A program made the position numbers and the translations under genes. Under the pieces are notes generated by a model. The model had not been told where the DNA came from, did no database searches, and saw only the letters and a program-made list of their open reading frames with translations. A DNA stretch of 64,000 bases from the NCBI GenBank assembly GCA_945872365.1, contig CAMBZJ010000004.1, positions 68,265 to 132,264 of the forward strand, read 5' to 3'. The stretch comes from Klebsiella pneumoniae (lineage in GTDB: Bacteria; Desulfobacterota; Binatia; UBA12015). Below, in pieces: positions 447-39,486 of the stretch; the stretch's first letter is position 1, and each line of letters opens with the position of its first letter.

Positions 447-1139
447 GTGCGGCGGCCGATGATCTCGGTCGTGGTGCCCGCACTCGACGAGGCGAGCGGC
501 ATTGCCGTCTGTCTCGCCTCGGCGCGCGACCCTCACGTCGCGGATATCATCGTCGTCGACGGCGGGAGCCGCGACGCGACCTCGGAACTCGCTGGTCGGC
601 TGGCCGACCGCGTCCTCCGCGCCGCGCCGGGGCGCGCCCTCCAGATGAATGCGGGAGCCGCGATCGCGCGCGGCGACGTCCTGCTCTTTCTCCACGCGGA
701 CAGCCGCCTGCCCGCGGGGTTCGGCGCCTCGGTGACCCGGGCGATCGAGGGCGGTGCCGTCGGTGGGCGCTTCGACGTGCGGCTGCGGGGCCGGCATCCC
801 GGCTTTCCGCTGCTCGGCGCGGCCATCAACGCACGATCGCGCTGGAGTGGAATCGCAACCGGCGATCAGGCGATCTTCGTGCGTCGCACGACCTTCGACG
901 CCATCGGCGGGTTCGAGCCGATTCCCCTCATGGAGGACGTCCGCCTCAGTAGGACACTCGGCCGCTGCGGCTCGTTCGTGGCGTTGCGTGATCGGGTCGA
1001 GACCTCCGGGCGGCGCTGGGAGGAATACGGCTTCGTGCGAACCGTGCTCCTGATGTGGCGCTTGCGGTTCCTGCACGCCTGCGGGGTTCCGCCCGAGGAT
1101 CTGGTCGGACGCTACCCGCCGCACCGCGCGCGCGAATGA
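447..1139 (+). CDS. Family 2 glycosyltransferase (TIGR04283-like)
   Basis: MISVVVPALDEASGIAVCLAS...IIVVDGGSRDATSELA...ED; GT-A fold motifs. Confidence 0.8.
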   Translation: MRRPMISVVVPALDEASGIAVCLASARDPHVADIIVVDGGSRDATSELAGRLADRVLRAAPGRALQMNAGAAIARGDVLLFLHADSRLPAGFGASVTRAIEGGAVGGRFDVRLRGRHPGFPLLGAAINARSRWSGIATGDQAIFVRRTTFDAIGGFEPIPLMEDVRLSRTLGRCGSFVALRDRVETSGRRWEEYGFVRTVLLMWRLRFLHACGVPPEDLVGRYPPHRARE

Positions 1140-1155
1140 CGGTTCGGGGCCCGGG

Positions 1156-1410
1156 TCAGGCCTCGGGTCGTTCGTCGGCCGGATCGACCCTGTCGTTCTC
1201 AGCGGGGAAGGTGAGCGCGAGTTCCTCGGCCTGCCTCTTGCCGGTGAGGGGGTTCTCGACGACGATGTAGGTCACCGCGCGGCCGGCCTGCAGTTCCTCG
1301 ATCGAATCCTCCGGGACGTGGCTCACGTGGAAGAAGATCGAGCGATTCGACCCCTCGGGCGTGATGAAGCCAAAGCCGCGGTCGGCGATGTAGTTCGCGA
1401 TTCGACCGTT
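1156..1410 (-). CDS. Cold-shock domain protein (CspA family); start codon not identifiable
   Basis: Translation NGRIANYIADRGFGFITPEGSNRSIFFHVSHV...LQAGRAVTYIVVENPLTGKRQAEELALT matches the CSD RNP1/RNP2 motifs. The frame is open only from a TGA at 1449..1447 and has no ATG/GTG/TTG before GFGFI. Not in the ORF track. Confidence 0.6.
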   Translation of the reverse strand, partial: NGRIANYIADRGFGFITPEGSNRSIFFHVSHVPEDSIEELQAGRAVTYIVVENPLTGKRQAEELALTFPAENDRVDPADERPEA

Positions 1411-2612
1411 GGCGCGGGAGCTCGGGCGGCGAGCGTCGCCGCGATCTCACCGGGCAGCGGTTGGTCGACCGGCTCGCGGCGGGGCACGTCCGGCGCGCCC
1501 TCCACCTCCTGCAAAAGCGCGCGGGCGCGCGCGTCGGTCGGATCGTGGTCGAGCGCGTTGCGCAGTCGTGCGAGTGCCGTGGTGCGGTCGCCGTGCTCCC
1601 AGGCGATTTCTGCCATGGTGCGGTGGACTTCGACCGCGAGCGAGGAGTGTGGCGGCACCCGGCCCGCGCTGAGGCGCTCGAGGACCTCGAGCGCGGTGAC
1701 CGGACGGCCGAGTGCGCGATGCAGGTTCGCCAACTCGATACGGATCTGGACCTCGCCCCGCGGGTGGCGTTCCAGTGCGTGCTGCAGGGACGAGGCCGCC
1801 TCGGCATGGCGGCCTCGCGCGAGAAGAAAGCGGCTGAGCCCGAGAAGCGCCACGCTTCCCTTGGGCATGGCCACGGCCTCGAGGAGGACCACCTCGGCCT
1901 CCGCCTCCCGCCCGCTGGTCTCGAGCGCGAGGCCCAGCCGTTCGAGAATCGCGGCAGACGACGGATCGAGGCGGCGGGCTTCGGTCAGCAGTGCGATGGC
2001 CCGCTCGGCGTCTCCGTCGCGGAGGTGAGTGGCTGCGGCGCTAGCGAGGAGATGCTCGCGCTTGATCGCTGCATCGGGCCGAGCGTCGAGTCGTTCGCAG
2101 CGCTCGAGTATTTCACGCGCGCGGGTGGTCTCCCCGATCTCGCGGCTGTTGCGGGCAAGGTGGAAGAGCACCTGCGATTGGATCCCGAGGCTGCGCTCCC
2201 GCTGGGCGGGGTTCGCACCCGTCCAAGCGTGGTCCGCGGCTTCCAGGTTCGCCGCCGCCTCGCGCGGACGATGCAGTCGCTCGAGGCAATAGCCGCGGCG
2301 GAACAGCGCCAGATGATAGTCGGGAAACGTGGCCAGCGCGTGGTCGTACCAGGAGATCGCACGCGCCCAGCGCTTGGCACGCTGGAAGAACCAGCCCGTC
2401 TGCGCATGGTACAGGGCGGCGCGGCTCGGGTGGAGTTCCGCGCAGCGCGAGTAGAAGCGCTCGACCTTGGTGGCATTTCCGGCGATCGAGTGAGCGCGGG
2501 CCACCCGGACCAGGAGGTCGAGATCCTTCCACTCGGGGCCGCCGACCTCGTCAAGGTCGCCCCAGCGGACGAGAACCGGGTCGAGGTCGCCTTGTCGTCC
2601 GGCTTCCGTCAA
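1323..2612 (-). CDS. TPR-repeat protein
   Basis: Multiple TPR-like repeats (AISWYDHALATFPDYHLALFRRGYCLERL..., ALEVLERLSAGR...). The likely start is TTG at 2612..2610, overlapping the purN stop (TTGA). The low-complexity C-terminal tail overlaps the csp 5' region in another frame. Confidence 0.6.
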   Translation of the reverse strand: MTEAGRQGDLDPVLVRWGDLDEVGGPEWKDLDLLVRVARAHSIAGNATKVERFYSRCAELHPSRAALYHAQTGWFFQRAKRWARAISWYDHALATFPDYHLALFRRGYCLERLHRPREAAANLEAADHAWTGANPAQRERSLGIQSQVLFHLARNSREIGETTRAREILERCERLDARPDAAIKREHLLASAAATHLRDGDAERAIALLTEARRLDPSSAAILERLGLALETSGREAEAEVVLLEAVAMPKGSVALLGLSRFLLARGRHAEAASSLQHALERHPRGEVQIRIELANLHRALGRPVTALEVLERLSAGRVPPHSSLAVEVHRTMAEIAWEHGDRTTALARLRNALDHDPTDARARALLQEVEGAPDVPRREPVDQPLPGEIAATLAARAPAPTVESRTTSPTAALASSRPRGRIARSSST

Positions 2613-3214
2613 GTGAACCCACCGAGAACGCGGCGACCGGAGATGCGCAGGCCGCCATGTGCGAGTTTCTGGAGGGCGAGCGGGTAGAGTCGATGCTCTT
2701 CTGCGAGGACCCGGGCCGCCAGGCTCTCCTCGGTGTCGTCGTCGAGGATCGGGACGGCGGCCTGCGCGATGATCGCTCCGTGATCCATCTTCTCGTCCAC
2801 GTAATGGATGGTGACGCCGGCGAGCCGCACGCCGTACTCGAGCGCCTGTCGCTGGGCGTGCAGCCCGGGAAAAGCGGGGAGCAGTGCGGGATGGACGTTC
2901 AGTACGCGTCCGGGGAACGCCGCGAGGAACACCGGCGTCACGATCCGATCGAAGCCGGCGAGGGCGACCGAGTCGGTGCCGTGCTGGCGGAGGACCTCGA
3001 CGAGAGTTGCATCGTAGCTCGCCCGGTCGGCATGGCCCCCGTGTGGCAGGATCGCGATGGGCACGCCGTGGCGACGGGCGTGCTCCAGGCCGGTGGCCTC
3101 CGGGCGATTCGTCACGACAAGAGTGGGCGTGGCATCGAGACGGCCCTCCGCGATGGCGCGCAGGATCGCTTCCAGGTTCGAACCACGACCGGAGATGAGG
3201 ACGGCGAGTTTCAT
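2609..3214 (-). CDS. purN: Phosphoribosylglycinamide formyltransferase
   Basis: MKLAVLISGRGSNLEAIL...NVHPALLPAFPGLHAQRQALEYGV; ATG at 3214. Confidence 0.9.
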   Translation of the reverse strand: MKLAVLISGRGSNLEAILRAIAEGRLDATPTLVVTNRPEATGLEHARRHGVPIAILPHGGHADRASYDATLVEVLRQHGTDSVALAGFDRIVTPVFLAAFPGRVLNVHPALLPAFPGLHAQRQALEYGVRLAGVTIHYVDEKMDHGAIIAQAAVPILDDDTEESLAARVLAEEHRLYPLALQKLAHGGLRISGRRVLGGFT

Positions 3215-3324
3215 GGGGGTTCTCTCGTGTTGGGATGGGCCGCTCGGCGGCGTCGGGAGTAAATCGGCGTCCTTTTCTAGCCCGAAGCGGTACGGCCGGC
3301 AAGCCGGAGCTATTCGGCAAAAAT

Positions 3325-4050
3325 TTATTTCCCGGGTCGTAGAGTACGGCCGAGCGTCCACAGTTCGACCCGCCGCGCCCCGGCCCGGCGCAGGACGCTG
3401 GCACACTCGTCGGAGGTGGCTCCGGAGGTGAGGACGTCGTCGACCAGGAGGATGCTCCGACCTTCGACCGCTGCGGCGTCGCGCACCCGGAACGCCCCGC
3501 GTACATTCGCCTCCCGCGCTCCCCGGCCGAGCGCCGTCTGGCTGGCTCCGCCGCGCAGTCGTCGCAGGGCCGCCAGGACCGGAAGGGCCCGCGTCGAGGC
3601 TACCGCACGGGCCAAGACGGCCGCCTGGTCGAATCCTCGGCGCAGCAGACGCGCCCTGCGCATCGGAGTCGGCACGATGGCGTCCGCATCGGTCTCGAAA
3701 GCGCGGGTGCGTTCTGCGAACAGGCGTGCGAGGCAGGCGCCGATCGCATGGTCGCCCTGGTACTTCCAGCGCACGAGAGCCGTCCGCAGGAGGGCGCCCC
3801 CATCTCCGGCCCGGTAGGGCAGACAGGCACGGGTTCGCTCGACGGCGGGTGGGCTCACCGTGCAACGATCGCAAGGGTTTCTCTCGCCCGGTTCCGCACA
3901 CTTGCCGCAGCCATCGGGCAAAGGGGCGAGGCGGCGGCGACAGGATCGGCAGGGGGCAGGAGGACTTGCCAGGGGCCGGTCGCGGCCGCAAAGAGGGCAG
4001 GCGGGCGGGTAGATGACCGCGGCGAGAACCTCTAGAAGGGTCGTTGCCAT
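3325..4050 (-). CDS. comF: ComF-family phosphoribosyltransferase-domain protein
   Basis: N-terminal Cys-rich zinc-finger-like region (CPLCG...CRSC...CGKC...CDRC) and C-terminal PRTase motif ILLVDDVLTSGAT. Confidence 0.75.
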   Translation of the reverse strand: MATTLLEVLAAVIYPPACPLCGRDRPLASPPAPCRSCRRRLAPLPDGCGKCAEPGERNPCDRCTVSPPAVERTRACLPYRAGDGGALLRTALVRWKYQGDHAIGACLARLFAERTRAFETDADAIVPTPMRRARLLRRGFDQAAVLARAVASTRALPVLAALRRLRGGASQTALGRGAREANVRGAFRVRDAAAVEGRSILLVDDVLTSGATSDECASVLRRAGARRVELWTLGRTLRPGK

Positions 4051-4139
4051 CGCCGGGAGCCGGATAGGCGAGCCGAAGGGGCGCGTCGATGGCTTGGGCG
4101 TCATGAATGGGCGGGGCCCGCGACCGCGAAAGCCGGAAC

Positions 4140-4325
4140 ATGTTTCGTTTTCTTCTGGGAAGCGCTATCGGGGGGGCTCTGACCTGGTGGTCTCTGACCG
4201 GGCAGGTTCCATTCAGCGACGACGCGACGACGTGGCTCTCGAAGGCGGCCTCGGGGTATACGCCGGGTGCGTATGCACCGGACCGGGAAGAGGATCTGAT
4301 CCGCCCCCGGGACCGAACCAGGTGA
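4140..4325 (+). CDS. Small hypothetical membrane protein
   Basis: MFRFLLGSAIGGALTWWSL is TM-like; short ORF in a lower-GC spacer upstream of greA; weak. Confidence 0.25.
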   Translation: MFRFLLGSAIGGALTWWSLTGQVPFSDDATTWLSKAASGYTPGAYAPDREEDLIRPRDRTR

Positions 4326-4335
4326 AGGAAGTCCG

Positions 4336-4830
4336 ATGTTTCTACCCATCGTCGAGCGTCTGAAGCTCGAACTGGCCGAGAAGCAGCGCGAACTGCAGCA
4401 GGACCTCCCGGCTCGGCTCGAGGAGGCGCGGGCGCACGGCGACTTGCGCGAGAACGCCGAGTACGAAGCGGCCAAGAACCGGCAGGGAATCCTGCGGGCC
4501 CAGGTCGCCCAACTCCAGACCAGGATCCGGGAGCTTTCGGTCTACACGATCGCGCAGATCCCGCGTGATCGGATTTCCTATGGCAGCCGCGTGACGGTCG
4601 AGGATGCCGACTCGGGCGAGTCGATCGAGTACCGCCTGGTATTCCCGGAGGAAGTCGACGCCGCCATGGGTCTGATCTCGATCAGTTCGCCGATCGGGCA
4701 GGGACTCGTCAACCGGACCGCGGGCGACGAAGTGACCGTGCAGACGCCTCGCGGTCGCAAGACCTACCAGGTGTTGAGCGTCGTCACGCTCCACGATCAG
4801 CCGGACGCGCTCGGCGACAAGCGAGCATGA
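4336..4830 (+). CDS. greA: Transcription elongation factor GreA
   Basis: HGDLRENAEYEAAKNRQ coiled-coil motif and C-terminal FKBP-like domain. Confidence 0.85.
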   Translation: MFLPIVERLKLELAEKQRELQQDLPARLEEARAHGDLRENAEYEAAKNRQGILRAQVAQLQTRIRELSVYTIAQIPRDRISYGSRVTVEDADSGESIEYRLVFPEEVDAAMGLISISSPIGQGLVNRTAGDEVTVQTPRGRKTYQVLSVVTLHDQPDALGDKRA

Positions 4831-6653
4831 AAAAGCCGGAGGCCGAGACGCTGCGGAGCTTGCCGGAGATGTTCTTCCGTCGGTCCGCTCGCTACGGAGA
4901 CAAGCCGCGCTACCGGGTGTTTCGCGAAGGCACCTGGCAGGAGTTCACGTGGCGCGACATGGAGACGGCCGTGCGCGAGATCGCGGCCGGGCTGATCGCG
5001 CTCGGCCTCGAACCGGGGCAACGGGCCGCGATCTTCTCCGGGACCCGTCCGGAATGGCTCGAAGCCGATCTCGGCATCCAGTCGACGGGGGGCGTGACGA
5101 TCCCGATCTACCAGTCGAACCTTACCAACGAGGCCGGCTACATCCTGCGCGACTCGGATTCGGGTTTTGTCTTTTGCGACGGGGAGAAGACACTCGCCAA
5201 GGTGAGGGAGGCGGTCGCCGCCGGCATCACGCTCGACGACGAAAGCCACGCCGACGTGAAGGTGCACAAGATCATCCTCATCGAGGGCGCCGCCACGGGC
5301 GAAGACGTCATGACGCTCGCGGATCTGCGGCGCATGGGGCGAGGCAACGCCGCAGCGGTGGCACGGGTGGACGAGAGGATCGCCGCCATCGATCGCGGCG
5401 ACATCGCGACCATCGTCTACACGTCGGGCACGACAGGCTCGCCCAAGGGCGTCGTCCAGTCGCACCACAATCACCTCTCGATGATCGAGAACAGTGCCCG
5501 CATCAACGTACTCGACGAGGGCGAGGTGGACTTCTTCTTCCTGCCGCTCGCGCACTCCTTTGCCCGCTTCGTGGGCTACTTCGGCCTCTACGCGGGCAGT
5601 GTGACGGCTTACGCGCGCAGCATCGACACGCTCGCCGACGACATCAAGGCGACCCGCCCCCACGTGATCCCGGCCGTACCTCGGATCTACGAGAAGATCT
5701 TCGGCAAGATCCAGTCCACGGCCGAGGCAGGCGGCTGGCTGAAGAAGCAGATCTTCGATTGGGCCGTCGCGGTGGGCAAGCGGCGCAGCGCCTGCCTGCA
5801 GGCCAAGGAGTCCCCGCCCATGCTGCTCGAACTGCAGTATGCTCTCGCCGACCGGCTGGTCTTCGCGAAGTTGCGCGACCTGCTCGGCGGCAACATCCGG
5901 ATCATGATCTCCGGAGCCTCGCCGCTCGCGCGCGAGATCCAGGAATTCTTCCACGCGGCCGGGTTGCTGATCCTCGAAGGCTACGGCCTCACGGAGACGA
6001 CCCCGGCGCTCACGATGAACCGGCCCGACGACTTCAAGTTCGGCAGCGTCGGGAAGCCCATCCCGGAGGTCGAGTTGCGGATCGCCTCCGACGGCGAGAT
6101 CTTCGCGAAGGCCCCCAACGTCGCGCTCGGCTACTACCGTCGGCCGGAGGAGACGGCGGCTTCCTGGGATCGGGAGGGCTGGTTCCATACTGGCGACATC
6201 GGCGAGATCGACGCCGAGGGCTTCCTGCGGATCACCGACCGAAAGAAGGACCTGATCAAGACTTCGGGCGGCAAGTACGTGGCACCGCAGAAGATCGAGA
6301 ACCTGCTGAAGATGCAGGCCCACATAAGCCAGGCCGTGGTTATCGGCGACAACCGCAAGTACTGCACGGTTCTCCTCGCTCTCGATCCCGACTCGGTACC
6401 ACAGTTCGCGCAGCGTTTCGGCCTCGCGAACGACCCGGAGCAGGTCGCGCGCCACCCCGAGGTCCAGAAGGTCATCGAGGAGCAGGTGAAGAAGGTGAAC
6501 GAGAAACTCGCTTCGTGGGAGAGCGTCAAGTACTTCCGCATCCTGCCACGGGAACTGTCGGAGGCCGGGGGGGAGCTCACGCCCTCGCTCAAGGTGAAGC
6601 GCAAGTCGGTCGCCAGCCACTACGGCGCCCTCATCGAGGAGATGTACTCCTAG
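4827..6653 (+). CDS. Long-chain fatty-acid--CoA ligase (AMP-binding)
   Basis: YTSGTTGSPKGV AMP-binding signature; C-terminal GWFHTGD...TDRKKDLIKTSGGKYV. Confidence 0.9.
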   Translation: MKKPEAETLRSLPEMFFRRSARYGDKPRYRVFREGTWQEFTWRDMETAVREIAAGLIALGLEPGQRAAIFSGTRPEWLEADLGIQSTGGVTIPIYQSNLTNEAGYILRDSDSGFVFCDGEKTLAKVREAVAAGITLDDESHADVKVHKIILIEGAATGEDVMTLADLRRMGRGNAAAVARVDERIAAIDRGDIATIVYTSGTTGSPKGVVQSHHNHLSMIENSARINVLDEGEVDFFFLPLAHSFARFVGYFGLYAGSVTAYARSIDTLADDIKATRPHVIPAVPRIYEKIFGKIQSTAEAGGWLKKQIFDWAVAVGKRRSACLQAKESPPMLLELQYALADRLVFAKLRDLLGGNIRIMISGASPLAREIQEFFHAAGLLILEGYGLTETTPALTMNRPDDFKFGSVGKPIPEVELRIASDGEIFAKAPNVALGYYRRPEETAASWDREGWFHTGDIGEIDAEGFLRITDRKKDLIKTSGGKYVAPQKIENLLKMQAHISQAVVIGDNRKYCTVLLALDPDSVPQFAQRFGLANDPEQVARHPEVQKVIEEQVKKVNEKLASWESVKYFRILPRELSEAGGELTPSLKVKRKSVASHYGALIEEMYS

Positions 6654-7377: not shown

Positions 7378-8847
7378 ATGGACCAACTTCAGCTGAGCCG
7401 GGTGATCGAACAGGTCAGCAAGGAGAAGCAGATTGATCGCGAAGTCGTCATCGAAGCGATCGAGAGTGCCATGGTCCAGGCCGCCAAGCGGCAATACGGT
7501 CTCAACCGCCTGATCGAAGCCAAGTACAACGTCGAGATCGGAGACGTCGAACTTTTCGAGATCAAGCGCGTGGTCGACCTGGTCGTGGACGCGGAAAACG
7601 AGATTACTTTCGAGGTGGCCCGCAGGGATCTCGACGACCAAGCCGAGGTGGGCGACGAGATCCTGAAGAAGTTACCGCGGATCGACGGCCGCATCGCTGC
7701 CCAGACGGCGAAACAGGGCATCATCCAGAAGGTCCGCGATGCCGAGCGGCAGATCATCTACAACGAGTTCAAGGACCGCAAGGGCGAGATCTTCTCCGGC
7801 ACGGTGCAGCGCTTCGAGAAGAAGAACATCATCGTGAACCTCGGGCGCACCGACGCCATCCTCCCCGAGAAGGAGCAGATTCCACGCGAGCGCTACCGGC
7901 AGGGCGATCGTATTCGGGCCTACATCTACGACGTCGACCTGACCGCGAAGGGCCCGCAGATCGTCCTGAGCCGGACCCACCCGAACCTGCTCATCGAACT
8001 CTTCCGGCAGGAGGTCCCCGAGATCTACGAGGGGATCGTCGAGGTCAAGGCCGCCGTTCGGGAGCCGGGGGGGCGCGCCAAGATCGCGGTCGTGTCGCAT
8101 GACCGCGAGGTCGACCCGGTCGGCGCCTGCGTCGGCATGCGCGGTACGCGGGTCCAGTCGGTCGTGCAGGAATTGCGCGGCGAGAAGATTGACATCATCC
8201 ACTATACGCCGGATCCAGCCGAGTTCGTTTGCCGGGCCCTCGCGCCTGCCAAGGTCTCGAAGATCATCCTCGACGAGGGCGAGCACCTGATGGAGGTGAT
8301 CGTCCCCGACGACCAACTCTCACTCGCGATCGGAAAGAAGGGTCAGAACGTCACGCTCGCCTCGCGCCTGACGGGCTGGAAGCTCGACATCCGCGGGGAG
8401 GCCGAGGCGGACGAGGAGGCGCGCAACGCGCGAGCCTCGTTGCTCTCGATCCCGGGTCTGAGCGACGTCACGGCGGAGATCTTCCTGCAGAACAACTTCA
8501 AGTCGGCCGAAGACCTGGCCGCCGCCGATCTGGATATGGTCGCGGAGATCGAGGGAATCGGGCCCGAGCGCGCGCTGGGCATCCTCGAGTCGGCCCGTGA
8601 ACACGTCCGCGACAAGCAGGCTCGGGCGGCGGAACAGGCCCTCGTAGCGGCGGAAGAGGCCCGTGTCGCGGCGGAACAGGCCCTCGTAGCGGCGGAAGAG
8701 GCCCGGCTCGCCGCGGAGGCGGCGGCGAACGCACCCGCGGTGGTCGATGCGGCCGGCGACCTCGTCGTGGGCTCGGACGAGGCCGCACCGGGTCCGGATC
8801 TCGCCCTGGTGGTTCCCGCGGTCGACGGGGAGCCCGGCCAGGGATGA
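7378..8847 (+). CDS. nusA: Transcription termination/antitermination factor NusA
   Basis: S1 and KH domains (GDRIRAYIYDV..., VDPVGACVGMRGTRVQ). GGAGGA RBS at 7364. The C-terminus carries a tandem-repeat extension. Confidence 0.95.
   Translation: MDQLQLSRVIEQVSKEKQIDREVVIEAIESAMVQAAKRQYGLNRLIEAKYNVEIGDVELFEIKRVVDLVVDAENEITFEVARRDLDDQAEVGDEILKKLPRIDGRIAAQTAKQGIIQKVRDAERQIIYNEFKDRKGEIFSGTVQRFEKKNIIVNLGRTDAILPEKEQIPRERYRQGDRIRAYIYDVDLTAKGPQIVLSRTHPNLLIELFRQEVPEIYEGIVEVKAAVREPGGRAKIAVVSHDREVDPVGACVGMRGTRVQSVVQELRGEKIDIIHYTPDPAEFVCRALAPAKVSKIILDEGEHLMEVIVPDDQLSLAIGKKGQNVTLASRLTGWKLDIRGEAEADEEARNARASLLSIPGLSDVTAEIFLQNNFKSAEDLAAADLDMVAEIEGIGPERALGILESAREHVRDKQARAAEQALVAAEEARVAAEQALVAAEEARLAAEAAANAPAVVDAAGDLVVGSDEAAPGPDLALVVPAVDGEPGQG
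8626..8709 (+). repeat. 2 x 42-bp near-perfect tandem repeat inside the nusA 3' end
   Basis: GCGGCGGAACAGGCCCTCGTAGCGGCGGAAGAGGCCCG(T/G)(G/C)TC twice; encodes AAEQALVAAEEAR(V/L) twice. Confidence 0.9.
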
Positions 8848-28007: not shown

Positions 28008-28120
28008 GTGAGTGATAGCTAGGTCCCGCGCAAGAGCGGGTCGCGAACCCCGCCAGGCCCGGAAGGGAGCAACGGTCCCGATTTCTCTCTGTGCCGCGGG
28101 GGTGCCTAGCTATCACTGAC
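28008..28120 (+). ncRNA. ffs: Signal recognition particle RNA (small 4.5S type)
   Basis: Conserved domain-IV core CCAGGCCCGGAAGGGAGCAACGG (compare E. coli CAGGUCCGGAAGGAAGCAGCC). A perfect 12-bp terminal helix GTGATAGCTAGG...CCTAGCTATCAC closes the molecule. It lies immediately upstream of dnaX, the canonical ffs-dnaX-ybaB-recR arrangement. The boundaries are read by eye, so the exact 5' and 3' ends may differ by a few nt. Confidence 0.8.
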
Positions 28121-32187: not shown

Positions 32188-32261
32188 GCCCCCGTAGCTC
32201 AGGTGGATAGAGCACAGGATTCCTAATCCTGGGGTCCCGCGTTCGAATCGCGGCGGGGGCA
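32188..32261 (+). tRNA. tRNA-Arg (anticodon CCT)
   Basis: Cloverleaf folded by hand: acceptor GCCCCCG/CGGGGGC; D arm GCTC...GAGC; anticodon stem CAGGA/TCCTG with loop TTCCTAA; T arm CCGCG-TTCGAAT-CGCGG; 74 nt, CCA not encoded. Confidence 0.9.
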
Positions 32262-32286: not shown

Positions 32287-34161
32287 TTGCCCGAGGAGGC
32301 CCCCCTCATGCCGTCTGATGACAGCCAAGTCTGCCTGACTCAGGCGGAACGCGAAACACTCCGCATCCGCTATCGCGAAGAGCGCGACAAGCGCCTGCGC
32401 GCCGACGGCAACCACCAGTATGTCGAGCCGACCGGTCGCTTCGCCCACTTCGTCGAAGACCCCTATGTCCCGCGGGTCGAGCGCGCACCGGTCTTCTCCG
32501 AGGTCACGGTCGCGTTCATCGGTGGTGGCTTCGCCGGACTCTGCACCGGCGCCCGCATGAAACAGGCGGGTATCGAGGACTTCCACATCATCGAGGGGGG
32601 CGGCGACTTCGGCGGGGTCTGGTACTGGAACCGATACCCCGGCGCGATGTGCGACACGGCGGCGATGGTCTACCTGCCGCTCATCGAGGAGGTCGGCACC
32701 CGGCCTACGATGAAGTACGTCCTTGCGCCGGAGATCTGGCGCCACGCGCTGCGGATCGCCGAGGCCTTCGGGCTGCGCGGGAAGGCGCTCTTCTCGACCA
32801 ACGTCACGCTGCTCGAGTGGGACGAATGCGACGCGCGCTGGGTCATCCACACCGACCGCGGCGACCGGATCCGCGCGCGTTTCGTCGCGATGGGCACGGG
32901 GCCCCTTCACCGGCCGAAACTCCCCGGGGTCCCGGGGCTGGAAAGCTTCGGCGGTCAAGCCTTTCATACGAGCCGCTGGGACTATGCATGGACCGGCGGC
33001 GACCCGAGCGGGTCTCCCATGACCCGACTTGCCGATAAGCGGGTCGGGATCATCGGCACGGGTGCGACCGCCGTGCAGTGCATCCCCCCACTCGGACGCG
33101 ACGCAAGGGAACTCTTCGTGTTCCAGCGCACGCCCTCGTCGATCGACGTCCGCAACAACCACCCGATCGACCCGGCCTGGTTCGATAGCCTCGATCCTGG
33201 CTGGCAGGCGAAGTGGCTCATGAACTTCGCGACGCTCCAGACCGGCGGCTTCGCCGACGAGGATCTCGTGCAGGACGGCTGGACCGACATCGCGACCCGG
33301 GTCCGGGATCGCATCGTGAAAGACCTCGGCGAGAGCGGCAGCATGCTCGACATGGCCGCGATCCGGAAGGCCTTCGAGGGCAGCGACGACGAGAAGATGA
33401 CCGAGATCCGGGCGCGCGTGGACGCGATCGTGAGGGATCCCGCGACCGCGGAGAAGCTCAAGCCCTGGTACCGCCAGCTCTGCAAGCGTCCCTGTTTCCA
33501 CGACGAGTATCTCCAGAGCTTCAATCGGCCGAACGTGCACCTCGTCGACACCGACGGCAAGGGAGTCGAGCGTATCGACGCGACCGGCGTCTGGGCGAAC
33601 GGCCGGCACTTTGCGCTCGACGGCCTCGTCTTCGCCTCGGGCTTCGAGTTCGCGACCGACTTCACGCGCAGGTGCGGCTTCGAGACGAGAGGGCGGGACG
33701 GCGAGACGCTGTCCGCGCACTGGAAGGGCGGCATGCGGAGCCTGCACGGCATCCACGCGCACGGCTTCCCCAACCTCTTCATCGTGAGTCTCTCGCAGGG
33801 AGGCGGACTCATCTCGAATATCACCCAGAACCTGGTCGAGGCCGGCACGACGATCGCGAAGGTGGTGCGCCATGCGCTCGACGCCGGGCGCGAGCATGTC
33901 GAGGCGACGCCTGCGGCCGAGGGTTTCTGGGTCGACCTGATCGAGAGCGCCCCCGATACCTTTCTCGGCAACCCGGAGTGCACGCCGGGCTACTACAACA
34001 ACGAGGGCCAGGAGATGGGCCGACGAGAACGCCTGAACGTCGGGCGGCACCCGCTCGGTCCGGTCGCCTACTTCCAGTACATCGACGAGTGGCGCAAGTC
34101 GGGGCGATTCGAGGGCCTCGAGTTCCGACGCGCATCCGAGGCGGCGAAGGTCGCGGGCTGA
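32287..34161 (+). CDS. Type I Baeyer-Villiger (flavin-containing) monooxygenase
   Basis: Two Rossmann motifs (GGGFAGL; GIIGTGATAVQ) and the BVMO fingerprint FGGQAFHTSRWD (FxGxxxHxxxWD). Confidence 0.88.
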   Translation: MPEEAPLMPSDDSQVCLTQAERETLRIRYREERDKRLRADGNHQYVEPTGRFAHFVEDPYVPRVERAPVFSEVTVAFIGGGFAGLCTGARMKQAGIEDFHIIEGGGDFGGVWYWNRYPGAMCDTAAMVYLPLIEEVGTRPTMKYVLAPEIWRHALRIAEAFGLRGKALFSTNVTLLEWDECDARWVIHTDRGDRIRARFVAMGTGPLHRPKLPGVPGLESFGGQAFHTSRWDYAWTGGDPSGSPMTRLADKRVGIIGTGATAVQCIPPLGRDARELFVFQRTPSSIDVRNNHPIDPAWFDSLDPGWQAKWLMNFATLQTGGFADEDLVQDGWTDIATRVRDRIVKDLGESGSMLDMAAIRKAFEGSDDEKMTEIRARVDAIVRDPATAEKLKPWYRQLCKRPCFHDEYLQSFNRPNVHLVDTDGKGVERIDATGVWANGRHFALDGLVFASGFEFATDFTRRCGFETRGRDGETLSAHWKGGMRSLHGIHAHGFPNLFIVSLSQGGGLISNITQNLVEAGTTIAKVVRHALDAGREHVEATPAAEGFWVDLIESAPDTFLGNPECTPGYYNNEGQEMGRRERLNVGRHPLGPVAYFQYIDEWRKSGRFEGLEFRRASEAAKVAG

Positions 34162-34170
34162 ACGAAGAGT

Positions 34171-35082
34171 CTACTCGGCGGTGCCCCGCTCCTTCAGGTG
34201 TCTCGCGAGTTGACGGTCGTGCCGGCTCGCGGCGCTCAAGGGGGCGATGTAGGGCTCCCAACGCGGCGGGCCCGCGGCGGATGGCCGGTCGCCCATGACG
34301 GTCACGCGCTGGATAAGGCGGTCGCCCTCGAAGTCGTCGAGCACGTGGTGCTGTGTGCAGCGATTGTCCCAGATGGCGATCGTGCCCGCCGTCCAGCGGT
34401 AGCGGACGGTGAAGCGCGGGCTGGTCGCCCAGCGGACGAGGAAGGCGAGGAGTGCGTCGCTCTCCTGGTGGCTCAGCTCGACGATGCGCCGGGTGAAGTG
34501 TTCGTTCACGAAGAGCGACTTGCGCCCGGTCTCCGGGTGGACCCGCACGACCGGGTGGATCGCGGTGCGCTCGGAGTGGCCGTGGGGATCTGCGTCGTGG
34601 AGCGCGGTCAGACCCTCGCAGAAGTCGCGCATCGCGGGCGAGAGCGTGTCGTAGGCGCGGTACATGTTGGCCCAGAGCGTGTCGCCGCCGACCTCCGGGC
34701 ACTCTGCCATCTGGAGGATCGACAGGACCGACGGCTCGTCGGCGCAGGTGAGGTCACTGTGCCACTCGTCGGCGATGCCCCCCACGCCGCCGCGTGCATG
34801 GAGCTGGAAGAATTCCGGCCGCTCCGAGCGCAGGTCGAGATTCGGGTGCGACTCGAGCTTCCCGAAGAGCCGCCCGAAGGCGACATGCTGGTCGGGATCG
34901 AGGTGCTGGCCTGGCAGGAACAGGACGAGGTGTTCGAGCAGCAACTCGCGGAGCCGATGGGCCTCCGCGGGCCCCGCCTTCGCGATCTCGATTCCCGTGA
35001 CCTCCGCGCCCAGGGACCCGGACAGGCGCCGGATGCTCAATTCGCCTCGCTGGTGGTGGTGGTGGTGGTCGCTCGTCTCCAT
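34171..35082 (-). CDS. TauD/TfdA-family Fe(II)/2-oxoglutarate dioxygenase
   Basis: WHSDLT (HxD) iron site plus a distal His region; the N-terminus carries a native His5 run (METSDHHHHHQ). Confidence 0.8.
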   Translation of the reverse strand: METSDHHHHHQRGELSIRRLSGSLGAEVTGIEIAKAGPAEAHRLRELLLEHLVLFLPGQHLDPDQHVAFGRLFGKLESHPNLDLRSERPEFFQLHARGGVGGIADEWHSDLTCADEPSVLSILQMAECPEVGGDTLWANMYRAYDTLSPAMRDFCEGLTALHDADPHGHSERTAIHPVVRVHPETGRKSLFVNEHFTRRIVELSHQESDALLAFLVRWATSPRFTVRYRWTAGTIAIWDNRCTQHHVLDDFEGDRLIQRVTVMGDRPSAAGPPRWEPYIAPLSAASRHDRQLARHLKERGTAE

Positions 35083-35267
35083 GTTTCCTCCACCGCGTTG
35101 CGGCCCCTCGGAGGGCTGGCGCCGGCGCGGGCGACGGAACTTGCAGCAGGCCCGTCTCCAGGCCGCGGAGCCCTAAAAGCCCGGAGCCCCCGGAATATCC
35201 GGCGGCGGGGGAAGCAGTCAACGAGGGATCTCCCACGAGGATCGACGTCGTGCCGGCGGTGCGAGCT

Positions 35268-36020
35268 TCAGGTGGCGGACGGAGTCTCGACCGACTCCTG
35301 CACGGTGGGGGCGCTCTCCCGGCCTCGCCGGATCATGCGAAAGGCGGTCCCCGTCGCACCGAGCCTCGGATAGGGTCCGGTGGATCGGACGTAGAGGATC
35401 GGCTCGCTGTGGACGATCTCGAAGGAGGGTGAGAAGAGCGACGGAACGTCGGCGTCGGAACCTCTTCGCGAAAACAGGAGGAACTTCGCTCCCGGGCGCG
35501 CCCACGAGGTCAGGTTCGCGAGGTAGACCTCGCGCTGCAGGACCGGGAGGACGTGGTAGCAGCCGCGGTCGAACAGGAAGTCGAAGCGTCCCTCCATTTC
35601 TTCGGTGGCTTGCGAGACGTCGAGCGTGCGGAACTCGAGGCGTGGCGCCAGGTGCCCGAAGTGAAGGCTTCCGAGCCGGGTCGCCTCCTCGGAGATGTCG
35701 GCAGCCAGCACGTCGAACCCCTGCTCGGCGAGCCATGCGGCGACCTGTCCCCGGCCCGTCCCGACGTCGATGCACCGGGATCCGGGTGCGATCCATCCGT
35801 CCGCGACCGCCGTCTTCAGTTGATCCGGCACGACGTCGGCGAGCACGCCGGGGTCACGGGAGCGCTCGACGACCCACTGGCGCTCCCAGTAGCGCTCGTC
35901 GAACGTCCGCAACACGGGCTCCAGGTGGCGCCCGAGCCAGCGAAATGGCCCGGGTAGGGCGATCAGCCGCCATGCGGAGCGGCGAACGCGATCTCCCCAG
36001 TCCAGCGCGATCCTCTTCAT
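35268..36020 (-). CDS. Class I SAM-dependent methyltransferase (TPMT/TehB-like)
   Basis: IDVGTGRGQVAAWLAEQGFDVLAADIS SAM-binding motif I; ATG at 36020 (alternative 36026). Confidence 0.75.
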   Translation of the reverse strand: MKRIALDWGDRVRRSAWRLIALPGPFRWLGRHLEPVLRTFDERYWERQWVVERSRDPGVLADVVPDQLKTAVADGWIAPGSRCIDVGTGRGQVAAWLAEQGFDVLAADISEEATRLGSLHFGHLAPRLEFRTLDVSQATEEMEGRFDFLFDRGCYHVLPVLQREVYLANLTSWARPGAKFLLFSRRGSDADVPSLFSPSFEIVHSEPILYVRSTGPYPRLGATGTAFRMIRRGRESAPTVQESVETPSAT

Positions 36021-36574
36021 GCCCATCGTTCGACAACTTGCCCGAAAGCTCGGGACGCCGTGCTTGGCGTAAAGCGCCCAGCCTCGGAAACTCCGCTCGC
36101 GGCGCCCCGCCCGTCTTCGAGCCGAGGCGATTCGCCGCGGGGAGCCGGGAGGAGGGGGCCGCCCCGCGGGGCGGCCCCCTTCGATGTCACTTCGCGAGGA
36201 CGACCAGTTCCGTCCTGCGGTTTCGTGCGCGCCCCTCGTCCGTGGTGACAGCCGCCATAAAGGCCCGATTGCGAGATCCGCGCCTTGATAGCGGACTACT
36301 GCAGGAGCCTTCGAGGGCCTTGTAGGGCAAAAACGAAGTCCGGTGCAAGGGGGTTTTCGGGATGCGTCGAGCTCTGGGGCGAGTTCAAGATAGCCGAGGC
36401 GTCGATTTCCGGGCGAGTCCGGCCCGGGGCCTCGGCTGCGCGCCCGCGCGGGTGCCCTCTCGCGCCCTGCGGGTACCGCGCCATCCGCCCGAATCACGGC
36501 CGCAGTTGCTGGTTGGGCGGGACGCGGACGGGGGGCAGTACTCAGGGAAGACCGACTGCCTGGGCGTCTCAAGG

Positions 36575-36965
36575 CGGGTGGACTCGCACGACCGGGTGGA
36601 TCGCGGTGCGCTCGGAGTGGCCGTGGGGATCTGCGTCATGGAGCGCGGTCAGGCCCTCGCAGAAGTCGCGCATCGCGGGCGAGAGCGTGTCGTAGGCGCG
36701 GTACATGTTGGTCCAAAGCGTGTGGCCGCCGACCTCCGGGCAGTTTGCCATCTGGAGGATCGACAGCACCGACGGCTCGTCGGCGCAGGTGAGATCGCTG
36801 TGTCACTCGTCGGCGATGCCCCCCACGCCGCCGCGTGCATGGAGCTGGAAGAATTCCGGTCGCTCCGAGCGCAGGTCATCCGAGCGCAGGTCGAGGTTCG
36901 GGTGCGACTCGAGCTTCCCGAAGAGCTGTCCAAACCCGTCATGCTGGTCGGGATCGAGGCGCTTA
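36575..36965 (-). pseudogene. Duplicated internal fragment of the TauD-family dioxygenase gene (remnant)
   Basis: ~380-bp near-identical direct repeat of 34533-34912 with point differences. One substitution turns the Trp codon of the WHSD iron-site motif into a stop. A 15-bp internal tandem duplication (CCGAGCGCAGGTCAT/CCGAGCGCAGGTCGA) is also present. No start codon or gene 5'/3' ends. Confidence 0.75.
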
Positions 36966-37026
36966 CCCTTGGGCGACCGGCGGGAGCGATCGTGACTCGC
37001 ACGCGCTCGCTCCTACAGTCGCTGTT

Positions 37027-37743
37027 TCAGTCCTGCTCCCGCATTGCCCCGACCATATGCATCGTGTAGAATGTGGTGTGAACCGACGGCGCAGATCCGT
37101 CGGGCGTCGAGACGATTCGGGTCCGCGTCTCCACCGACGTTCCTCCGTATGTGGATAGAAGCAGGATCCCGTCGACCTTCGAGAAAGACCCTTCGGCAAA
37201 GGCCGGGCCGCCGTCCGGGATCTCCGCCGGCGGCGGGGCGAGGAGGTCGATCTCGTAACGGAGTCCCGCGACGGGGCCACCGGTGACGAGGTCCTTCCGA
37301 CTGCCGGGGATCTGCGCGAGGATTACCCGGTCCGCATAGGACACCCAGCGAAAACCGATCTCGCTTTCGACCGTCCACGGAAGCCATGAAGGCGGATCGG
37401 CCGGGTCGTGGGGGCGTTGCCCGTCGAGCCCCGGGATGGCCGCTGCGTTCACGCTCGTGAAGCGGAAAGCCTTGCGGCCACGCCATCGTGCCGTCCCGTC
37501 GCGATCGAAGCTCAACGTCCCGGAGGAGGTTAAGTCGATATCGCGCTCGGGCACGCTCCGGGCTGGATCCTGGCCGGCCGCGTAGACGGTCACGCCGGCC
37601 GTCCAGATACCGTGAATCGGGCCGTCGGTCAGCGAGCGATGGCCACGGCCGAGTATGGGCAGAGCGGCTTCGGCGGCCCGCGTGGTACCGACTGCGGCGA
37701 GCACGCCGGTCGCGGCGAAGAATGGAAAATCTCGTCTCTGCAT
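37027..37743 (-). CDS. Hypothetical exported protein (Tat-like signal)
   Basis: MQRRDFPFFAATGVLAAVGTTRAAEA N-terminus; no recognisable domain. Confidence 0.55.
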   Translation of the reverse strand: MQRRDFPFFAATGVLAAVGTTRAAEAALPILGRGHRSLTDGPIHGIWTAGVTVYAAGQDPARSVPERDIDLTSSGTLSFDRDGTARWRGRKAFRFTSVNAAAIPGLDGQRPHDPADPPSWLPWTVESEIGFRWVSYADRVILAQIPGSRKDLVTGGPVAGLRYEIDLLAPPPAEIPDGGPAFAEGSFSKVDGILLLSTYGGTSVETRTRIVSTPDGSAPSVHTTFYTMHMVGAMREQD

Positions 37744-37989
37744 CCGGTGTTCCTCCTTGAATATAAACTTGGCCCGCGTGCGTCTCCCTTCGGATACGCC
37801 TGGGCGGGGGAGATGGTCAATTCGGCATTTTCGAAGTGGGCCGGGATTGTCGGGTGGCACGGTTCACGCGGAGGGACGGGTCTTCGAGGACAAGACCTGT
37901 TCGAGGTCATCGAGGATCGGCACGGGGAGCGGCGGAAGGGATGGGTTTCGCATCGCCGAGCACCAGGTCCTGAAGGGAGGCGCGGGCGC

Positions 37990-38080
37990 CACTTTCGAGC
38001 CTGGACTACCAAACCCCGATCGAGTTCAAGGCGGGGAGCATTAAGAATACCACCCAGCCGACGGAGTCAGATTCTCAATA
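37990..38080 (+). mobile_element. Remnant of an IS3/rve-type transposase C-terminus
   Basis: Frame ending ...LDYQTPIEFKAGS... matches the conserved C-terminal (L/G)Y.TP.EF motif of integrase-core transposases. Only ~25 codons are intact, in a locally lower-GC patch. Confidence 0.35.
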
Positions 38081-38271
38081 ATCGATTGGCCCAGAGAACC
38101 CGGGCAGCTCACAGGCTCCTTCGACGGGCGCTTCCAACCGACACGCCGGCCGAGTCATAACGCGGGCCTCGGCCCAGCCGCAAGCTGGAGTAATCCCCCG
38201 GGCGGTCGAACCCGGGTTCCGGTTGGTCCGGAGGCATGTTTCCAGGATAGGACGGGAGCCGGGGAGGATTC

Positions 38272-39486
38272 ATGGCACGCGTCATTAAACTCGGAATCAA
38301 GCGACCCGTGAGTGGTCCGCTGCTCCCGGACCCGGAGCCGCGCGAGGCTCTTTACACGATCATCTCGGTCGACGACCACCTGATGGAGCCGCCGCATCTC
38401 TTCGACGGGCGACTCCCTGCGCGCTTCGCCGAAGTTGCACCGCGCGTCGTCGAGACCGAAGAGGGCCACCAGGTCTGGGTCTTCGAGGACACGCCGTACT
38501 TTCAGGTGGGATTCATGTGCGTCGCTGGCCGCGCCCGAGACGACCAGCGCTTCGAGCCGGCGCGCTTCGAGGAGATGCGACGCGGGTGCTGGGACCCGGA
38601 CGCCCGCATTCGCGACATGGACATCAACGGAGTGTGGGCGTCGGTGAATTACCCGTCGGGCGTCACGGGCTTCGGCGGCACTCTCTTCTCCGAGGCGCGC
38701 GACAAGGAACTCGGGCTCGCCTGCGTGCGTGCCTGGAACGACTGGGTCTACGAGGAGTGGCACCAGCCGCATCCCGAGCGGATCATTCCGCTCGGGATCA
38801 CCTTTCTCGCCGACGCGGAGAAGGGCGCCGAGGAGATCCGTCGGAACGCAGCGCGCGGTTTTAAAGCGGTGACGGTTCCCGAGCAGCCGCACAAGCAGAA
38901 CCTCCCATCGGTCTTCGACCCGTTCTGGGAGCCGATCGTGCGGGCGTGCGCCGAGACCGGTACGGTGCTGTCGCTCCACGTCGGTTCGTCGGGCTTCGGC
39001 AGCATTCCGCCGGGCGGCGGCATGGAACTCGGCGCGACCAAGTTTGGGCCCATGGCGATCGAGACCTGCGCGGAGTGGCTCTGGAGCGGCTGGCCGGCCC
39101 GTTACCCGGACCTGAAGCTCGCGATTGCCGAGAGCGGGATCGGCTGGGTCGCGATGCTCTGCGACCGGCTCGACAACATCATGGCGCGATCGGGCTACGG
39201 CGCGGGCTGGCCTGACCCGAAGAACTCGCCGTCGGACGTGCTGCGGCGGAACTTCTGGTTCTGCCTGATCGACGACCCCTCGACAATCTGCACGCTCGAC
39301 AAGATTGGCATCGACCATGTGGTCGCCGAATCGGACTACCCTCACGGTGACGGAACCTGGCCCGACACGCAGCGCGTGATGCAGCGCATGCTCGGCGGGT
39401 TGCCCGACGAGTGGATCCGCAAGATATGCCACGAGAACGCGGCGAAGCTCTACCGCCATCCACTGCCGGCGACCTGTCGGCCCTGA
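38272..39486 (+). CDS. Amidohydrolase-2 family metal-dependent hydrolase (ACMSD/LigI-like)
   Basis: IISVDDHLMEPPHLF (the HxH-type metal site is replaced by DxH, as in this family) ... VAESDYPHGD C-terminal motif. Confidence 0.8.
   Translation: MARVIKLGIKRPVSGPLLPDPEPREALYTIISVDDHLMEPPHLFDGRLPARFAEVAPRVVETEEGHQVWVFEDTPYFQVGFMCVAGRARDDQRFEPARFEEMRRGCWDPDARIRDMDINGVWASVNYPSGVTGFGGTLFSEARDKELGLACVRAWNDWVYEEWHQPHPERIIPLGITFLADAEKGAEEIRRNAARGFKAVTVPEQPHKQNLPSVFDPFWEPIVRACAETGTVLSLHVGSSGFGSIPPGGGMELGATKFGPMAIETCAEWLWSGWPARYPDLKLAIAESGIGWVAMLCDRLDNIMARSGYGAGWPDPKNSPSDVLRRNFWFCLIDDPSTICTLDKIGIDHVVAESDYPHGDGTWPDTQRVMQRMLGGLPDEWIRKICHENAAKLYRHPLPATCRP

Follow-up and report, generated by a model that had tools for sequence, protein, structure and literature searches.

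The 64,000-nucleotide stretch of DNA analysed here (the window) carries an intact TauD/TfdA-family dioxygenase gene and, about 2 kb upstream of it on the same strand, a damaged partial copy of about 390 bp (the remnant). We read the remnant as a relic of a recombination-mediated partial duplication, which, judging from its sequence, would have no function. The explanation as a whole, in which the remnant is what is left of a second TauD copy and integration of a methyltransferase cassette is the favoured route, has a probability that we put at about 80%. Comparison with relatives showed that the ancestral locus was ordered amidohydrolase / p238 / TauD / BVMO, and that the window's clade has two diverged spacer-TauD units, in direct orientation, around a SAM-methyltransferase gene. 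Campbell-type single-crossover integration and homology-facilitated illegitimate recombination both leave gene relics of this kind in bacteria.

An intact TauD gene and its damaged partial copy

The intact gene has the domain and the iron ligands of its family. Residues 17-261 of its product correspond to positions 2-267 of the 267-position PF02668 profile (E=9e-62), a full-length domain, and the protein has both H108-x-D110 and a distal TQH motif. Among solved structures the nearest is PlaO1 (7qtd), whose WHTD and TQHY motifs align with the iron triad of the window's protein (WHSD at 107-110 and CTQHH at 242-246).

A first-pass annotation of the window had described a mutated, same-orientation copy of an internal TauD segment, and its coordinates proved correct within 1-5 nt. 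Self-BLAST of the 64-kb window recovered this duplication (E=7e-145) as the sole sizeable repeat, the only other pair being 50 nt long. A repeat finder resolved it into two direct pairs, 34534-34833 / 36575-36874 (300 nt, 96%) and 34823-34907 / 36879-36963 (85 nt, 91%), and pairwise alignment into two gapless blocks (34907-34837 = 36963-36893 and 34836-34534 = 36877-36575). There are 21 substitutions over 374 aligned nt (94% nucleotide identity) and 15 extra nt in the remnant. The alignment also bore out the differences that had been listed for the second copy, namely scattered point changes, a stop codon in place of the WHSD tryptophan, and a 15-bp tandem duplication.

The G>A change at 34762/36803 that converts TGG (Trp107) to TGA is common to the remnants of every lineage examined; the HSD codons are kept, but behind the stop. 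A second substitution, D134H, falls in the conserved GGD motif. The extra 15 nt (minus strand 36892-36878, GACCTGCGCTCGGAT) are a tandem copy of the adjoining 15 nt (GACCTGCGCTCGGAG) and are limited to the window's own lineage (the window, L001 and L082-L085), whereas remnants of other lineages lack them; those of L098/L099 have a lineage-specific 9-bp deletion. Missing from the upstream TauD unit are the 5' 175 nt and the 3' third, although degenerate homology may continue for ~25 nt on the 3' side (to about 36550). Translated, the remnant matches PF02668 at profile positions 100-187 only (E=3.7e-15), and tblastn matched residues 58-183 at 89% identity. Set against the TauD/TfdA dioxygenases (PF02668, PlaO1), the intact gene is alike in its full-length profile and HxD...H ligands, whereas the remnant differs in having no start codon, in lacking the first 58 and last 120 codons (the distal His included) and in being broken at Trp107. 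As predicted from these losses, its product could neither fold nor bind iron. Homology to a functional gene, truncation at both ends, W107*, D134H and the 15-bp or 9-bp indels together mark the remnant as a pseudogene relic.

Rfam, searched with the locus at E up to 1, gave no match, and so no support for a structured RNA in either the remnant or the 0.55-kb spacer. The antisense transcript suggested in the first-pass annotation is not supported by the layout: the remnant lies in sense orientation between co-oriented genes, and a promoter-like site occurs on the plus strand only at 37044-37072, directed away from the remnant. Selective constraint was also considered; remnants across all lineages are only 0-3 nt apart and have the stop and both truncation points in common. 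This low diversity matches that of the whole insert, methyltransferase and spacers included (0-1.3%, vs p238 and BVMO allele classes up to 6% apart), and is not specific to the remnant.

Table 1. Coordinates of the TauD copies and neighbouring features within the window
Feature	Position	Strand	Basis or remark
Flavin monooxygenase (BVMO/FMO-like), convergent with TauD	32287..34161	+	downstream flank conserved in every layout
Intact TauD/TfdA-family Fe(II)/2-oxoglutarate dioxygenase, 303 aa	34171..35082	-	ORF 35082..34171, Pfam, motifs
Segment of intact TauD matching the remnant	34534..34907	-	repeat finder and alignment
Diverged 5' 127 nt of intact TauD (His-run N-terminus METSDHHHHH...)	34956..35082	-	comparison with methyltransferase-less relatives
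Methyltransferase-TauD spacer, about 186 bp	35083..35267	-	sigma-70-like site 35221-35194
Class I SAM-dependent methyltransferase, 252 aa, between the TauD copies	35268..36026	-	profile and comparative searches
Perfect GC-rich palindrome/hairpin, 28-nt	36151..36180	.	MFE -38 kcal/mol for 66-nt context
Non-coding stretch, about 331 bp, after the remnant	36244..36574	-	varies most between strains
TauD remnant, codons 59-183 of second TauD copy	36575..36963	-	repeat finder, alignment, profile search, tblastn
TGA in place of Trp107 codon (WHSD iron-site motif)	36803..36805	-	alignment
15-bp in-frame tandem duplication (DLRSD|DLRSE)	36878..36892	-	alignment
p238-side spacer, ~62 bp	36966..37026	-	conserved in methyltransferase-less relatives
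p238, 238 aa, Tat-like signal, ancestrally next to TauD on its upstream side	37027..37743	-	profile and comparative searches

Comparison with relatives and the route of duplication

Relatives lacking the methyltransferase, with which the first-pass annotation had proposed a comparison, do exist. In L121-L123 a single complete TauD comes right after p238, behind an identical 62-bp spacer. L121 and L122 follow the window across p238 and the spacer as far as 36966, and the alignment resumes at nt 54 of the intact TauD; in these relatives the spacer is kept to the remnant's 5' edge and is followed by 40 bp and then a complete TauD. The remnant therefore occupies the ancestral TauD position. Where the relatives have ~80 bp, the window has ~1.9 kb, comprising the remnant, 330 bp of non-coding DNA, the hairpin, the methyltransferase and a new TauD 5' end. 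The outgroup loci L115-L120 are likewise without the methyltransferase. L167 has the order TauD>methyltransferase, the methyltransferase being downstream, and this pair adjoins the same BVMO.

The single complete TauD of L121-L123 indicates that the methyltransferase-bearing DNA is an insertion associated with the TauD duplication, as the first-pass annotation had proposed. A simple duplication of the target did not stand, because the downstream copy is complete and chimeric and the upstream one has been cut short on either side. Between the intact TauD and those of the methyltransferase-less relatives, nt 7-127 show 31 mismatches and a 12-nt indel, and nt 128-912 only four differing sites, which places a sharp recombination breakpoint at TauD nt 127/128. 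The intact TauD is complete and chimeric, its first 127 nt forming a new 5' end. The N-terminus of the methyltransferase-less relatives (A-type) is closer to the outgroup consensus than the window's, which argues that the A-type belongs to a long-functional gene.

Changes were polarised with L115 and L167, and the counts are small. The remnant branch has 14, of which 8 are non-synonymous (the stop among them) and 6 synonymous; the intact branch has six, with one non-synonymous and five synonymous. They fit a decaying pseudogene next to a constrained gene, the pattern being near-neutral on the remnant branch only. Synonymous markers of the remnant are nt 204G, 207T, 357G, 408T, 486T and 540A. 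All six intact-branch changes are also found in the methyltransferase-less relatives, so the remnant branched off earlier than the last ancestor shared by all intact copies and is not a recent self-copy.

By the favoured route, a circularised TauD>methyltransferase cassette would have arrived from a close relative, a gene order that exists in L167, and integrated by a single homologous crossover of Campbell type near TauD nt 127/128. The result would have been two full TauD copies on either side of the methyltransferase, of which the redundant upstream copy would then have decayed through deletions and point mutation. The locus resembles known relics of duplicative recombination in that the acquired DNA lies between directly repeated portions of a resident gene, with one copy functional and chimeric and the other truncated, carrying stops and indels and showing a near-neutral non-synonymous:synonymous ratio. 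It differs from them in that there is no vector, integrase or transposase, no donor was found, and the remnant is trimmed at both ends, which requires more than one event.

Several observations weigh against cassette integration. Two later deletions are required, the 331-bp non-coding stretch and the hairpin-bearing piece are left unaccounted for, and the route gives no firm reason for the cluster of seven changes within 34 nt at the remnant's 5' edge. The methyltransferase-less layout could, moreover, be derived by recombinant deletion instead. Beyond this locus the methyltransferase has no relative of more than 66% identity, the next ones lying at 62-66%, and neither a donor nor a full-length TauD allele of the remnant type was found. 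GTDB representative genomes were of no use for the history, the nearest TauD protein being 73% identical and without synteny. The hallmarks of an IS or transposon (short target-site duplication, terminal inverted repeats, transposase) were not found: no inverted repeats of at least 20 nt occur in 33000-38500, no transposase-like ORF lies between the TauD copies, and the repeat is 374 nt long.

The intervening DNA was also searched. The 0.55-kb non-coding stretch matched neither Rfam nor Pfam. At its end the hairpin comes after the tail of a short ORF (...TDEGRARNRRTELVVLAK*, 36187-36243); scaffold L112 folds back at this palindrome. The ORF tail may resemble an OmpA C-terminus, though Pfam gave no OmpA match and the fetched loci held no comparator. 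We also asked whether the 331-bp stretch is what remains of the upstream TauD's 3' third, but the alignment was no better than shuffles and tblastn found nothing. Positions 35102-35160 of the methyltransferase-TauD spacer bear a weak resemblance to the spacer between p238 and TauD (24/1000 shuffles score as high).

The strongest competitor, still unlikely in our estimate, is that TauD was duplicated in tandem, in situ and long ago, around a TauD>methyltransferase pair already in place, with L121-L123 as later inter-copy recombinants from which the methyltransferase was deleted. Given the TauD>methyltransferase order beside the same BVMO in L167, one gain of the methyltransferase followed by losses is parsimonious. 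The TauD of L121 is exactly such a hybrid, with a different 5' 127 nt and a 3' part near-identical to the window's intact copy, and the two branches have similar numbers of synonymous changes (6 vs 5), as expected of paralogues of equal age. However, the 5' truncation is common to all remnant lineages, so the deletion must predate it, yet the 3' part of L121 is only 0.5% off the window. The 5' end that L121 would inherit from a decaying copy also looks well conserved against outgroups, and the two units diverge by 20-40% in their 5' parts vs 4% further 3', which is hard to obtain from a single in-situ duplication.

Homogenised copies in k=55 assemblies

The first-pass annotation had also suggested that the remnant could recombine with the intact gene. 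No deletion product was found; mosaics were seen, but in k=55 assemblies only, where they are likelier to be artefacts of the assembler. A block at TauD nt 321-408, with eight diagnostic sites, occurs in three states among near-identical haplotypes: L088-L097 have the remnant type in both copies, which splits TauD into 106 + 185 aa (P0132, 53 contig blocks), L101/L102 have the intact type in both, and in L100 the copies are properly distinct. Among the GROS21-1 samples, SAMEA9561251 yielded the split TauD and SAMEA9561285 a 'repaired' remnant. Together with a two-site mosaic in L104 and the remnant's AAC codon 127, also present in L110-type intact copies, this would be expected if the remnant and the intact TauD were actively converting each other in natural populations, with short tracts passing both ways: W107* and D134H would be carried into TauD and switch it off, or the remnant would be 'repaired'.

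We consider such conversion improbable, because all homogenised cases are GROS21-1 metaSPAdes scaffolds. Contigs from these assemblies begin exactly 55 nt ahead of the graph branch, indicating k=55, and only two identical runs, of 56 and 62 nt, reach 55 nt in length; these flank the 88-bp block, with identical edges in every case and in both directions. A search for a flank haplotype separating the 'converted' states found none. The copies are kept distinct in MEGAHIT k87/k141 contigs (L001, L099) and in two NCBI MAGs; JGI contigs span one copy only, of the intact type. In the L110/L111 lineage, where extra differences interrupt the 56-nt stretch, there was no homogenisation in the same pipeline. 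Bubble collapse is therefore the most likely cause of the 88-bp homogenisation in the k=55 metaSPAdes scaffolds, and real gene conversion less likely. The pattern is like de Bruijn-graph bulge collapse (metaSPAdes, k=55) in that one variant block of 88 bp is given a single sequence in both copies and contigs end in 55-nt overlaps at branches; it is unlike it in that it concerns other assemblies, the window's own two copies being resolved. The apparent placement of the remnant on a mobile module (L085, with different flanks) was likewise resolved, as a 2555-bp cyclic/tandem path in one GROS21-1 strain's assembly graph (L090) and not a second setting in the genome.

Slightly less probable again is that the remnant is a working conversion cassette that reversibly switches the dioxygenase off and on, the 53 'split TauD' contigs being genuine off-state alleles. 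Like the silent cassettes of Neisseria (pilS>pilE) and Borrelia (vls), the remnant is promoterless, partial and in the same orientation near an expressed homologue, and some assemblies of the TauD locus show mosaic blocks. Unlike them, the window holds one remnant, which carries a stop, and not several cassettes; its target is a cytoplasmic-type dioxygenase and not a variable surface antigen; and the mosaics have fixed edges and come from k=55 assemblies only.

That the window's repeat is itself an assembly artefact, as a chimeric join or a mis-placed strain variant, has a negligible chance: the source is evidently a metagenome assembly and assemblers stumble at this locus (fold-back scaffold L112; contigs breaking inside the repeat), but the p238 / remnant / methyltransferase / TauD / BVMO layout recurs in >25 independent contigs from various studies and assemblers (MEGAHIT k141/k87 contigs, metaSPAdes scaffolds, JGI contigs and two NCBI MAGs), with the same junctions and stop codon at 98-100% identity in independent samples and with lineage-specific indels.

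Significance of the relic

The practical effect of the remnant is to confuse short-k assemblers. With a 374-bp, 94%-identical intragenomic repeat, k=55 assemblies most likely put a stop into a functional gene or remove one from a pseudogene, and a TauD that is probably falsely 'pseudogenised' (P0132) has already reached a public protein catalogue. Calls of pseudogenes or gene conversion from such assemblies need to be checked for repeat-driven error. For the biology the significance is minor: the remnant is an ordinary gene relic, marking the entry of an accessory methyltransferase into a variable islet between conserved genes, where TauD and the methyltransferase travel together in two gene orders.

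A truncated second copy of TauD

The window carries a direct repeat, with one copy inside the intact TauD ORF (34534-34907) and the other upstream (36575-36963). In pairwise alignment the copies form two gapless blocks that differ by 21 substitutions in 374 nt, and the upstream copy is 15 nt longer. The repeated segment spans TauD codons 59-183, including the WHSD motif (codons 107-110), where the Trp107 codon is TGG at 34762 in the intact gene and TGA at 36803 in the remnant. The extra nucleotides (GACCTGCGCTCGGAT, 36892-36878) are an in-frame tandem duplicate of the next 15 nt. The first-pass annotation had described a duplicated TauD segment bearing a Trp-to-stop change and a 15-bp internal duplication; repeat finding and alignment bear out all three. 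With 58 codons missing at the start and 120 at the end, the remnant cannot encode an enzyme. Self-BLAST of the 64-kb window, a self-comparison of the kind that the annotation had proposed, recovered the TauD pair and no other repeat longer than 50 nt. An overlapping 50-nt direct repeat (8626-8717, offset 42 nt, 94% identity) probably lies inside a coding region.

The intact ORF encodes a TauD/TfdA-family dioxygenase (PF02668, E=9e-62) whose closest solved relative is PlaO1 (7qtd, E=1e-71); alignment to 7qtd located the HxD and distal TQH motifs. Its N-terminus has a natural His run (METSDHHHHHQ; window 35055-35069, codons 6-10), which varies between lineages (HHHHH or HHHH, giving 303 or 302 aa) and is missing from TauD of methyltransferase-less relatives. 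The short ORF tail beside the palindrome is reminiscent of an OmpA-family C-terminus, a likeness for which a Pfam search gave no support; it could be a second gene relic.

Features of the TauD locus and nearby RNA genes, listed along the minus strand, 5' to 3'
Feature	Position	Strand	Remarks
p238	37743..37027	-	238-aa protein, Tat-like signal, function not assigned
p238-remnant spacer		-	~62 bp
TauD remnant	36963..36575	-	
Stretch of 331 bp	36574..36244	-	No coding signal, no Rfam signal
Short ORF tail	36187-36243	-	Ends in TDEGRARNRRTELVVLAK and a stop; directly before hairpin
Perfect GC palindrome	36151-36180		-38 kcal/mol within 66-nt context
Class I SAM methyltransferase	36026..35268	-	Methyltransf_25/23/TPMT-like
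Methyltransferase-TauD spacer		-	186 bp, with sigma-70-like site
Intact TauD	35082..34171	-	303 aa
Flavin monooxygenase (BVMO)	32287..34161	+	Convergent
tRNA-Arg(CCT)	32188-32261	+	Between secF and BVMO, ~2 kb from TauD locus
Bacterial small SRP RNA	28017-28114	+	72 bits, upstream of dnaX

The repeat in independent assemblies

Exact-protein look-ups and one metagenome scan supplied the comparison set, in which many independent assemblies have the window's layout. These include MEGAHIT contigs L001 (k141; 99.2% identity over 4 kb, remnant identical to the window's) and L099 (k87), NCBI MAGs GCA_041192125.1 (L098) and GCA_947477625.1 (L110), and dozens of scaffolds named STUDY_SAMPLE_METAG-scaffold (L088-L114). 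JGI contigs L108 and L124 cover the methyltransferase-to-TauD side only, the remnant side lying outside their span. All remnants share the TGA codon and both truncation points and are 0-3 nt apart; the 15-bp duplication is limited to the window's lineage (window, L001, L082-L085), and L098 and L099 instead carry a 9-bp deletion at the remnant's 3' end. Because layout, stop codon and truncations recur in independent assemblies with lineage-specific indels, the repeat is real and has been inherited within a clade of uncultured bacteria. The mis-assembly of the window contig against which the first-pass annotation had cautioned is excluded at the assembly level by the MEGAHIT, MAG and scaffold data.

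Several contigs show other rearrangements. Scaffold L112 folds back exactly at the palindrome (28-30 nt), so that BVMO-TauD-methyltransferase is mirrored as methyltransferase-TauD-BVMO (924-4909), which is either a fold-back made during assembly or a true inverted duplication; five places of the same kind were reported. In the strain type of L090 (1-2610) and L085, the place of the 5' two-thirds of p238 is taken by a gene for a 317-aa Cys-rich secreted protein. There, the assembly graph contains a closed loop of 2555 bp (Cys-rich gene, p238 tail, remnant and 331-bp spacer), joined at window 36244/36243, which may reflect either a tandem duplication or a circular form. L085 1-2280 was considered as a remnant in foreign context and rejected, as it is a path around this cycle, present in L090. 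The GROS21-1 metagenome scaffold L106 (190-663) has a methyltransferase ORF of 157 aa and does not align to the window over the gene's initial 491 nt; it could be one more structural variant or an error of assembly.

Ancestral position and origin of the remnant

The comparison with methyltransferase-less relatives that had been proposed was provided by three JGI contigs without METHYLTRANSFERASE (L121-L123; protein P0123). Their order is amidohydrolase(-), p238(+), 101 bp, a single complete 299-aa TauD and BVMO(-), and both methyltransferase and remnant are absent. Alignment of their p238 and spacer to the window runs as far as 36966, the exact 5' edge of the remnant, and that of their TauD to the intact copy begins at nt 54; ~81 bp there correspond to ~1.94 kb in the window (36965-35030). 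The methyltransferase is likewise absent from the more distant L115-L120 (TauD 84% nt identity). The remnant thus sits where the single ancestral TauD was. Relative to L121-type genes the intact TauD is chimeric, with 31 mismatches and a 12-nt indel over nt 7-127 and only 4 mismatches over nt 128-912. Within the 186-bp spacer, one part shows weak similarity to the spacer between p238 and TauD (24/1000 shuffles score as high). Together, the chimeric copy and the spacer similarity suggest two diverged spacer-TauD units in tandem around the methyltransferase.

The 21 differences comprise 12 synonymous and 9 non-synonymous changes, the nonsense change counted among the latter. Polarisation with L115 and L167 placed 14 on the remnant branch (8 non-synonymous, 6 synonymous; V67D, A68G, R71Q, W107* and D134H are among those at conserved positions) and 6 on the intact branch (1 non-synonymous, 5 synonymous), with one ambiguous. 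This pattern is consistent with a remnant that decays neutrally and an intact gene kept under purifying selection; synonymous changes are about as many on either branch (6 and 5). All 6 intact-branch changes also occur in L121; the remnant therefore branched off earlier than the last ancestor shared by all intact copies, and cannot be a recent self-copy made within the window's lineage. The duplicative insertion proposed by the first-pass annotation is broadly right, in that the event was associated with the methyltransferase insertion. The remnant derives either from a diverged donor allele or from an old duplication, with L121 a later recombinant.

Insert diversity is 0-1.3% overall and the p238 and BVMO allele classes are up to 6% apart, which suggests a young insert spread by recombination. 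Each of these two genes occurs in two deeply diverged classes (up to 6% nt), shuffled among lineages regardless of methyltransferase presence, which indicates frequent homologous recombination in the population.

We favor integration of a circular cassette by single crossover, then decay, as the probable route. A circularized TauD>methyltransferase cassette would have arrived from a close relative, and one homologous crossover near nt 127/128 would have inserted it into a p238-TauD-BVMO locus, giving p238, hybrid TauD, X, methyltransferase, diverged spacer, chimeric TauD and BVMO; the redundant upstream TauD would then have lost its ends and gained a stop. This route would explain why the copies share an orientation and enclose the methyltransferase, why the remnant is diverged and lies at the ancestral position, and why the downstream TauD is chimeric; the diversity pattern is compatible with it. 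It would require two extra deletions and leaves segment 36027-36574 unaccounted for, and the cassette donor was not found among methyltransferase relatives outside the locus (<=66% identical). A less likely rival starts from an ancestral TauD>methyltransferase pair around which an old tandem duplication formed; recombination between the copies would later have produced the L121-type strains. The L121-type TauD N-terminus would then come from the decaying copy, and its good conservation argues against this route, as does the 5' truncation common to all remnants.

Outside the locus the next best methyltransferases are 62-66% identical, with no closer relative found. One of these, in L167 (3030-5219; 65% identical), lies 42 bp downstream of a TauD with 87% identity and is followed by the same BVMO in convergent orientation. 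This order is opposite to the window's; TauD and methyltransferase are therefore linked in two different orders, a hint that dioxygenase and methyltransferase may be functionally paired.

Apparent exchange between the copies, and its meaning

The first-pass annotation had proposed the remnant as a recombination substrate. The expected deletion product, spacer joined to a 5'-truncated hybrid TauD, was not found among the retrieved contigs; mosaics do occur in GROS21-1 scaffolds, probably through the assembler. The GROS21-1 scaffolds compared share one near-identical haplotype, yet the block at nt 321-408 (8 diagnostic sites, including the TGA) has three states. L088-L097 have the remnant type in both copies, giving stop-bearing full-length TauD genes (e.g., L088 9647-10558) called as ORFs of 106 and 185 aa; L101 and L102 have the intact type in both, leaving a remnant without the stop; in L100 the copies are properly distinct. 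The edges of the homogenized block never vary; they match nt 265-320 (56 nt) and nt 409-470 (62 nt), the only two stretches of 55 nt or more in which the copies are identical. Logan k=31 contigs end inside the 56-nt stretch.

By their STUDY_SAMPLE_METAG names, the GROS21-1 scaffolds appear to come from a metaSPAdes pipeline. Several start at a graph branch, where they overlap by exactly 55 nt, and one holds a run of 10 N, which indicates k=55. The pipeline is described in PMC11701688. No flanking haplotype separating the block states was found, the copies stay distinct in larger-k assemblies, and the L110/L111 lineage, even where assembled by the same pipeline, shows no homogenization, extra differences interrupting its 56-nt stretch. 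Taken together, these observations led us to conclude that the block is likely (about 85-90%) an assembler bulge collapse. Genuine gene conversion in both directions is the less likely alternative.

On its sequence the remnant itself is an ordinary gene relic, and nothing points to a function. A useful by-product is a documented example of how a repeat can create a false pseudogene in public metagenome assemblies: the split TauD, whose 185-aa product (P0132) the protein catalogue lists in 53 contig blocks, probably arose through bulge collapse at k=55.
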